Below are positions 59,544 to 61,815 of a stretch of 64,000 nucleotides of DNA, piece by piece (within the stretch, counting starts at the first letter, position 1; each line of letters opens with the position of its first letter). Below the pieces are notes generated by a model. The model was not told the DNA's origin, did no database searches, and worked only from the letters and a program-made list of their open reading frames with translations. The translations under genes were made by a program, and so were the position numbers. Source of the DNA: Trichormus sp. ATA11-4-KO1 (GTDB lineage Bacteria; Cyanobacteriota; Cyanobacteriia; Cyanobacteriales; Nostocaceae); contig JAHHIM010000036.1 in NCBI GenBank assembly GCA_019358915.1, positions 96,001 through 160,000 on the forward strand, written 5' to 3'.

Positions 59544-59747
59544 CTAAAAATTCTCTAAGAAAAAGGGGGAAGATTTTTTCTCTTCCCCCTGGCGATTATT
59601 TTGAATGTTGTCTGGTTTATTATTTTCTTTTAGCTTTTGTCGTAGCATCTGCCTTTGTTTTTTGAGTTGTCGTTTTCTGGCTGAACCGCCTCTACCTTTC
59701 TCATTTCTCCCTTCTCTACGGGGGGATTCCCATCTTTTCAGTCGCAT
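59544..59747 (-). CDS. Small basic protein; candidate alternative ribosome-rescue factor
   Basis: AAGGA RBS + ATG; Lys/Arg-rich; KGRGGS; terminator inside the CDS. Confidence 0.6.
   Translation of the reverse strand: MRLKRWESPRREGRNEKGRGGSARKRQLKKQRQMLRQKLKENNKPDNIQNNRQGEEKKSSPFFLENF
59557..59590 (-). terminator. Intrinsic terminator within the small ORF
   Basis: Minus strand: AGGGGGAAGA-gaaaaaa-TCTTCCCCCT followed by TTTTCTT. Confidence 0.8.
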
Positions 59748-59912
59748 ATTGGTTTTTCCTTAAAACAAACACGATATACACTAAAATGTAGCATATATGT
59801 TTACACTAGCTATCTGACTTGAAATGCTGAGTAAAAGTCAATAAATCAGTAAAGAAGACTTTCATTCGTCTTGGTTACATAGTTCACGATCGCTAGTTAA
59901 AATCTTTAGAAG

Positions 59913-59996
59913 TGGGCAGGAGGAGAATCGAACTCCTATGACCGCAAGGCCGCCACATTTTGAGTGTGGTGCGTCTACCAGTTTCGCCACCCGCCC
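59913..59996 (-). tRNA. trnL: tRNA-Leu(CAA)
   Basis: GGGCGGGTGGCGAAACTGGTAGACGC..CTCAAAA..long variable arm..GTTCGATTC..GCCCA. Confidence 0.96.
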
Positions 59997-60105
59997 TTAG
60001 GTGCAACTTTACTATTATAGTCTATAGAGTGAATTTGCAACAAGTAAATTCAAAATTTTTTTGGGATCTGATTTGATTCCAGTTGAATGGACTCTGGTTT
60101 AGTTT

Positions 60106-60306
60106 AACGTGAGTTCGATGAACCTCACCCCAACCTCTCTCCGACACGGAGAGGGGCTTAAATATCTTGAAAGCTCAACGAGAAATTAAGATTTTGAAGC
60201 CTCTAACGCCACGTGCTACAACGCGGGGAACCCGCGCAACGCAGTGGCTCCTCCTTGCAGGGGAGAGGTTTGGAGAGGGGTTTTTTCAACTTGTCGAACT
60301 CACGTT
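60106..60306. mobile_element. MITE with 13-bp TIRs and a 5-bp target duplication
   Basis: AACGTGAGTTCGA / TCGAACTCACGTT, flanked by AGTTT on both sides. Confidence 0.85.
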
Positions 60307-60943
60307 AGTTTAAAGTAACTAAACTAGAGTCCACATTTTGTAGCTGGGTACAGCCACTGAGAGCCATTGCCACGTTTAACTCATTTTGTAGCAGCGAAAT
60401 GACATGAGATACACCGGCTTGTCCTCCTACTGCTAGTCCCCACAAAATAGGTCGTCCTATCATTAAGGCTTTTGCTCCTATTGCTAGGGCTTTGAGAATG
60501 TCTGTACCTCTGCGGATACCTCCATCTAATAGCACCTCTACTCTGCCATCTACTGCTGCTACTATCTCAGTTAAAGCATCTAAAGAGGCGATCGCTCCAT
60601 CTAGTTGTCTGCCACCATGATTGGAAACTACAATTGCCTTAGCTCCATACTCCACAGCACGCACAGCATCATCTCCCCGCAAAATTCCTTTGATTACCAA
60701 AGGTAGTGGTTGCCCTAAAATAGAGGTACTAAGATAGCGATCGCTTACATCTACCAATATCCGAGGTCTGAGTTTAATTCGCTCAAAGGCAGTACGATTA
60801 TCTCGCAGTGTGATTTCATCCCCAGCGCCACTACTGTAGTAATCAAAAGCCATCTGAGACAGATGCTTTTTTGCTAGCTGTTCGTATTCAAATAAGTTAA
60901 TGGGTTGGCAATAATCATCGTTTGCTAAAGCTGGTAAGCTCAC
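60305..60943 (-). pseudogene. FMN-dependent alpha-hydroxy-acid oxidase (glycolate/lactate oxidase-like) with a large in-frame internal deletion
   Basis: N-terminal [14 protein letters not shown] joined directly to LVIKG..SNHGGRQ..DGGIRRG; only about 212 aa. Confidence 0.82.
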
Positions 60944-61815
60944 CAATTGCGCCACCCACCCTGGGATGCAACTTCACCCTGAGAATTCAACCCGTGATTT
61001 TGCAATAAAGATTGATATTCTGTACTGCTGGACCAACGGTCAATTTCTTTAGCTCGTAGTACTGGTACCGGATGGGTTAATTGAGCTGTGCGGGCTTCTT
61101 TGACCATTTCACCCAGTTCAGTTTTACTAATATCATCGTAAGCACGAGCTTGGGCAACGAAAGCATCTAAATTAAGTTGTGGTGCTAGGGTTGGTGAACC
61201 ACCTGCTAGTTTCATCAACACCGACATGACAACTTTAGGGTCTTGGGTAGCTAACAAGGCGGCGCGATCGCAGGTAAACTCAGCACAGCGTACCCATTCT
61301 AATAGTTGTGCCTGTATCGCTTGGGCAATAAAAGCTCCGACATTAGGCACAATCGCAGCTGCTAGCACTAATAAGTTTACAGGCGTCAGATAAACACTGT
61401 GGTCACACTTAAGATGCCCCAACTCATGGGCAATTACTGCCTGTATTTCGGCTGGTGTGAGGATATCAACTAGAGAAGTGTGCAGCACAATAAACGGCTG
61501 TTTACCCCGCATAGCAAAGGTGTAGGCATTAGGAGCCGGATGTTGGCGGATATACAACTGGGGAGGTTCTATATCTAAGATTTTGCAAGCTTCTAATAAT
61601 AGTTTGTATAAATCAGGCAATTGTTTTTCACCCACCAGAACACTGGCGGCAATATTTTCCACATAAAAAACCTGTTCTGCCATTGGTCCGAGCCAATTTC
61701 GCACCATCATATCCAGACCTGGTATTTGCTTGAGAGATTTAGTTGCTTCCAGGTCTAATGGGTGACGAAATGAATCAGCTTTTAAACCGATTAATGGAGT
61801 TTTAAAGAAGGACAT
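60940..61815 (-). CDS. M48 family Zn metallopeptidase
   Basis: PNAYT, AHELGH, AEFTCDR, THP. Confidence 0.92.

Follow-up and report, generated by a model that had tools for sequence, protein, structure and literature searches.

A small basic protein family of oxygenic cyanobacteria and cyanophages with a terminator inside its reading frame: a candidate back-up ribosome-rescue factor

The locus

The candidate ORF lies on the minus strand of the 64-kb window (the whole stretch of DNA that was analysed) at 59544..59747 and comprises 67 codons from an ATG start, giving a product of 67 aa. A Shine-Dalgarno-like AAGGA (59757..59761, minus strand) precedes the ATG by 9 nt, and the translation contains the motif EKGRGGSARKR. 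The sequence-only reading had pointed to a 67-aa frame with this ribosome-binding site and this motif, and all three are present on the minus strand at 59747-59544. On this strand, the ORF can be divided into a conserved basic core of residues 1-42 (59622..59747; arm 1-18, predicted helix 19-42, as delimited by alignments and AlphaFold2), a variable N/K/Q/D-rich linker (59591..59621) that is free of in-frame stops by the stop-codon count across loci, an intrinsic terminator stem-loop (59564..59590) recognised by its fold and found in the equivalent place in homologs, and a U-tract (59557..59563). The latter is the predicted 3' end of the transcript, with a nonstop product of ~63 aa. The first in-frame stop, a TAG at 59544..59546, is past this predicted end; family-wide, the distance from stem to stop is 5-250 nt and unconstrained.

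The stem has 10 pairs, 6 of them G-C, and a loop of 7; it is formed on the minus strand only, and the gap between U-tract and TAG is 10 nt. The perfect 10-bp stem with a U-tract ending 10 nt short of the stop, as originally described, was thereby recovered. The hairpin has a folding energy of -18.5 kcal/mol (z -3.3), equalled by 1 of 200 shuffles. In the surrounding 5-kb region, 5 terminators were found against 4.3 expected, a count not above chance; it is the position of the window terminator, not the regional count, that is unusual. Among 2725 long ORFs of this genome, a terminator-like site stood 6-150 nt before the stop in 49, in mid-gene in 49 and after the stop in 215. When ORFs of 40-130 aa with any start were taken, 11 of 23,315 had a strong internal terminator, and the candidate is the only one of those 11 having an ATG plus a ribosome-binding site.

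The gene for tRNA-Leu(CAA) (59912..59996, minus strand), a conserved neighbour, lies on the same strand, 164 nt upstream. The stretch separating it from the ORF in the window yielded no terminator, and this tRNA was the sole Rfam match on the locus. A 216-aa ORF of an FMN-dependent dehydrogenase (60305-60955) sits between the tRNA-Leu and a likely M48 peptidase gene and matches only part of the 350-position Pfam model, perhaps owing to an internal deletion. An inverted-repeat-like stretch spotted by eye at 60080-60320, between the tRNA-Leu and the dehydrogenase, is possibly a small mobile or repeated element.

Distribution and conservation of the family

Homologs number 1026 at 90% clustering and fall into 450 representatives at 50%. 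Named records come from Nostoc, Trichormus, Microcystis, Cyanobacterium, Geminocystis, Picosynechococcus, Thermostichus and others, and all of them are hypothetical proteins. The protein family was found in 36 of 41 relatives, in 92 of 301 genomes of the phylum (33/37 in the taxonomic family of the window, 1/166 in the last ten families) and in 11 of 20 further genomes of the class, one of these copies being divergent; in the taxonomic family f33 it was found in 23 of 41. Nearly all carriers have one copy per genome. A broader profile run on 39 previously negative genomes gave nothing beyond one match at E 0.045, which has a stop. The range first proposed, Nostocales, was therefore too narrow: the family is present there, but it extends to most of the class Cyanobacteriia and to cyanophages. 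Another match, L257, was discarded as due to chance.

The ORF had no Pfam match and no NCBIfam match near the cut-off. PHROGs gave nothing meaningful, Foldseek found no match in the PDB, and the matches in the ESM Atlas were unnamed cyanobacterial clusters only. A literature search that included motif strings and locus tags, with subscription papers largely and supplements wholly beyond its coverage, found no description of the family. By these database comparisons, the family is an unnamed one, spread across oxygenic cyanobacteria.

Conservation of the N-terminal part, which had been suggested as a check, is seen among the homologs at the protein level over residues 2-42 (the 41-aa basic core), while the sequence of the tail is random. 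Pairwise counts over the core gave 29,746 synonymous vs 14,188 non-synonymous differences, with third-position changes dominating; judged by the alignments, the core is under protein-level selection. AlphaFold2 predicts a single helix at residues 19-42 (pLDDT 85-95 for residues 21-40) and an uncertain extended arm (about 60 for residues 1-20). Residues K4, E7-R10, G13-N15, K17, A23, Q27 and K30 are invariant across hosts and phages, and the segment 18-21 is replaced in f33 and in most phages.

A strongly diverged copy (L249:1459-1722, E 0.009) keeps the internal terminator, and one homolog of it was found, in a Leptolyngbya record. A bin carrying the label Acetobacteraceae includes a 5.9-kb contig with a 91%-identical copy (L088), probably through misbinning.

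Nonstop design across host loci

The terminator was scored in 165 unique loci (180 minus 15 duplicates), and the detector called one in 157. The first in-frame stop was more than 8 nt past the stem in 152 of these, 8 nt past it in 1, 5 nt past it in 3 borderline loci whose stop is inside the U-tract, and before the stem in 1 (L145); at least 5 nt were thus found between stem and stop in 156 of the 165. The 8 uncalled loci include six with a weaker hairpin and a U-run before the stop (by eye), one short form of 41 codons (L157) and one running off the contig end. Two later independent sets from other orders, scored by the same rule, had the terminator before the stop in 10/10 and, in f33, 19/20 loci. 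That a terminator would precede the stop in homologs had been proposed as a check on the window gene, and it does so in 185 of 195 genome loci, as far as sequence can tell.

In-frame stops were counted from the core to the end of the stem in 60 non-redundant loci, with L145 and the loci without a called terminator left out; kin are not independent, and binomial significance figures would be too strong for this reason. None was found in 1048 codons, the other two frames having 20 and 78 and the same frame just downstream having 62. The nonstop product has a median length of 63 aa; the full ORF varies from 50 to 148 aa, its length being random past the terminator. At present, the nonstop design can be read from the sequences and termination is predicted; control of the family by tmRNA is very probable.

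Some hosts have an ordinary stop, as follows from two sources. A metagenome scan that was aimed on purpose at short forms gave, after removal of 11 duplicates, 69 loci: the terminator was inside the ORF in 52, 10 were long without a call, 1 had a call after the stop, 5 were true short forms and 1 met the contig end. A host lineage of 45-47 aa with an ordinary stop is likewise represented by records from Tumidithrix and Synechococcus sp. PCC 7502. Among the host genome loci, an ordinary stop after the core was found in three: L145, L157 and L309. The short copy L157 (161-755) has a rimM gene 13 nt behind it.

RNA contigs cover the homolog L166 in 4 of 4 runs, and single contigs bridge its terminator in 3 of the 4, so read-through or DNA exists there; being contigs, these data are uninformative on ends, strand and level. 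One contig (L352:742-784) matches L357 exactly until about codon 48 of the gene and then continues, to the contig end, with 42 nt of the tag-coding region of tmRNA, out of frame. This gene-tmRNA junction was seen once in 389 loci and is probably a chimera with an abundant RNA, yet it joins exactly this mRNA to tmRNA. Differing tails are also seen at residues 47-54 of the proteins P0272-P0274.

Neighbouring genes

The tRNA-Leu(CAA) gene was found upstream in 40 of 94 loci, and in 16 of these 40 it is 25-32 nt away. Of the 72 flanking ORFs that were scanned (71 of the 88 listed, plus one), 11 were an M48 peptidase gene lying upstream. This might reflect an old arrangement of peptidase and tRNA genes in which the mRNA forms the trailer of the tRNA. 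The possibility that the hairpin simply ends the tRNA-Leu transcript, raised along with the original observation, is argued against by the loci without tRNA-Leu in 1400 nt, 46 of 51 of which keep the internal terminator; stop exclusion likewise holds with or without the tRNA. Since the design is kept without the tRNA, the hairpin is part of the gene. Visual inspection of the loci revealed no upstream motif common to them. The neighbours (tRNA-Leu, tRNAs at viral loci and rimM behind one short host copy) point to translation. In one host locus (L304:2134-2526), the sole case in 388, the copy is about 500 nt from the tmRNA gene.

Phage copies

Scans of viral sequences gave 6 and then 23 loci, with phage-family neighbours at five of the first six. 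A normal stop closes 18 of the 23, which are core-only copies of 40-47 aa (6 of these have a terminator past the stop); the other 5 have the nonstop form. No cultured phage came up in tblastn when the query was the host core or one viral copy; with a T4-like variant instead, the family was found in S-CREM1, DSL-LC02, S-SSM4, S-SSM6b, P-SSM7 and A-HIS1. No annotation of the gene exists for S-CREM1, DSL-LC02 or S-SSM4; in A-HIS1 it is recorded as similar to Acaryochloris AM1_2888. The five cultured-phage copies shown are 41-52 aa long, with the stop after the core. As most phage copies are core-only, the core would be the working unit and the tail a regulatory one; ending right after the core, these copies would be made without tmRNA control.

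Genes for tRNA were found near 3 of the 23 viral loci, and one is located 15 nt downstream of the S-SSM4 copy. Two copies (L252 and L254) lie about 7 kb apart on one 119-kb viral contig, both near tRNA genes.

Comparison with known rescue factors

Two characterised proteins have the nonstop design, ArfA and BrfA, and both are rescue factors that recruit RF2, according to PMC8012679 and PMC6881298. ArfA of E. coli shares with the candidate the nonstop design and a dispensable, unconserved tail; in the family, the ORF is 50-148 aa long, its tail is poorly conserved and core-only copies exist. The likeness in sequence is limited to residues 13-25 vs ArfA 30-42 and consists of a local N-x-K-G-K/R-G-x-x-x-R-K pattern resembling ArfA 32-42 (hhalign E 0.03, probability 1.6%). 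No PF03889 match was found in the ORF, in this genome or in 37 family members. When KGKGS-centred ArfA windows of 11-21 residues (flanks 3-8) were used as queries, the ORF ranked 1st-10th of 46,106 ORFs; with flanks of 0-2 it ranked 42nd-368th, and in whole-protein searches 67th and 616th (mature ArfA blastp 67th, E 91). One of the ArfA motif windows had been picked after the fact. Among the host copies, K17-G18-K/R19-G20-G21 is kept at 99-100% in 164, whereas segment 18-21 is replaced in 19 of 20 f33 loci, and 14 of 21 phage copies have another residue in place of G18. The KGKGS-like motif, to which weight had been given in the first description, is weaker evidence than it seemed. At most, the Gly-rich motif is a hint of convergence.

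BrfA (YqkK) of B. subtilis has a Rho-independent terminator in its ORF and a nonstop product of about 62 of 71 aa (PMC6881298). The terminator inside the ORF, the small size and basic character, and a genome that has RqcH and lacks both ArfA and ArfB are common to the two systems. In BrfA the helices are N-terminal and a KH motif is present, whereas the candidate has one C-terminal helix at 19-42, and no conserved KH of the ArfA/BrfA type occurs in residues 2-42. The basic helix here comes after the motif, unlike the order in ArfA and BrfA. In a PDB sequence profile search, none of the chains up to E 10 was a rescue factor.

ArfT of Francisella tularensis has about 40 aa (PMC6299226), a size close to that of the core and of the phage copies, and its KKGGSTNKK shares KGGS with the K19 variants. 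The arfT gene is without an internal terminator, whereas host copies of the candidate have one. A Pfam scan of 37 members gave weak matches of the coiled-coil type only and no family linking them to ArfT. As for ArfB and SmpB, with their basic C-terminal tails (PMC8012679), the comparison suggests that a basic helix could occupy the mRNA channel. The GGQ hydrolase domain of ArfB was not found in the candidate by translation, Pfam or NCBIfam, and profile comparison with the tails of 20 ArfB loci (2 of them wrongly extracted) and of the host SmpB gave a probability under 0.5%. On these comparisons the family is none of ArfA, BrfA and ArfB and, judged by Pfam and gene design, probably not ArfT either; the candidate is BrfA-like by gene design and, by sequence, no member of a known family.

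The present genome has RF1, RF2, SmpB, tmRNA and RqcH; ArfA and ArfB were not found in it. In the order of the window, 46 of 62 genomes without ArfB carry the candidate, and no alternation with ArfB was seen (both 38, candidate only 46, ArfB only 6, neither 16, n=106; Fisher p 0.15, kin not independent). The family f32 alone fits complementarity, with the candidate in 0/14 and ArfB in 14/14. E. coli possesses both ArfA and ArfB, so the missing alternation neither supports nor refutes a rescue function. When a complex with host RF2 (domains II-IV) was predicted from alignments of both partners, the score was 0.20 against a mark of 0.32, which is evidence neither way.

Interpretation

The family probably serves as a back-up for ribosome rescue in the manner of ArfA and BrfA, having evolved independently of them and being held down by tmRNA tagging. 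Transcripts would end at the U-tract and the ribosome would stall at the 3' end of the nonstop mRNA. The tmRNA-SmpB system would then tag the ~63-aa product for proteolysis, and untagged protein would build up only when trans-translation is short. The least certain steps are the last: the basic helix may bind the empty mRNA channel, and the invariant arm (W/H-E-S-P-R, G-R-N-x-K) may recruit a release factor, by analogy rather RF2 than RF1, after which the peptidyl-tRNA would be hydrolysed.

This reading draws on the nonstop design, the size, the charge, the translation-linked neighbours and the fit with the missing ArfA and ArfB, homology being absent. The lack of homology to known factors, the replaced motif, the absent KH, the different helix order and the lack of complementarity with ArfB appear to count against it, as do the ordinary-stop host copies, the 3 stops in the U-tract and the bridged terminator of L166.

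The same architecture would serve a tmRNA-gated protein with another job on the ribosome, such as that of a brake, of a hibernation factor or of an aid to quality control of the RqcH/MutS2 type, switched on when trans-translation is overloaded. The presence of RqcH, the absence of homology to release-factor recruiters and the variable motif would agree with this, but an unregulated phage form fits a translation-sustaining factor better than a brake, and both characterised proteins of this design are rescue factors; we regard such a job as unlikely, though with some real chance. A small basic RNA- or DNA-binding protein, for instance one acting in tRNA processing, might owe its nonstop design merely to a need to limit its level. 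The frequent place in the tRNA-Leu trailer, at times immediately behind the tRNA, and the tRNAs near some phage copies speak for it; the design persists in loci lacking the tRNA, however, and a weak promoter or ribosome-binding site would be a simpler control of level, which makes this quite improbable.

A role in phage-host conflict, with the host protein sensing that infection or a nuclease has disabled trans-translation and the phage copies acting as mimics or counter-defence, has a slightly smaller chance still. The family does occur in T4-like cyanophages and A-HIS1, mostly in uncontrolled form, but hosts have close to one copy each, at a conserved place in the chromosome that follows the M48 peptidase gene and tRNA-Leu, and the host query matched no plasmid. 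Absence of any nonstop control, with the hairpin ending the tRNA-Leu precursor or leaking and the protein coming from read-through mRNA with a normal stop, would accord with the lack of a terminator found between tRNA and ORF in the window, with the bridged hairpin of L166 and with the normal stops of some host and most phage copies, but it is very improbable given that stops before the stem are avoided specifically in the frame of the ORF, that the tail is random in length and sequence and that the design persists without the tRNA.

For the back-up rescue factor, a wider proposal may be made, with somewhat less than an even chance of being right. The family would be a fourth, independently evolved group of release-factor-recruiting rescue factors, present in most oxygenic cyanobacteria and captured by cyanophages, where a stop placed behind the core would release it from tmRNA control and so keep stalled ribosomes recycled during infection. 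Among 162 genomes of the cyanobacterial group surveyed in PMC11633108, 0 are listed with arfA and 90 with arfB, so many cyanobacteria would be without a known alternative rescue factor. A review considers that further small factors probably exist beyond the reach of similarity searches (PMC8012679). The present family, found through its gene design, is a concrete candidate for this gap and can be tested by standard assays. Phage copies with and without the nonstop design offer a natural comparison of regulated and unregulated alleles.
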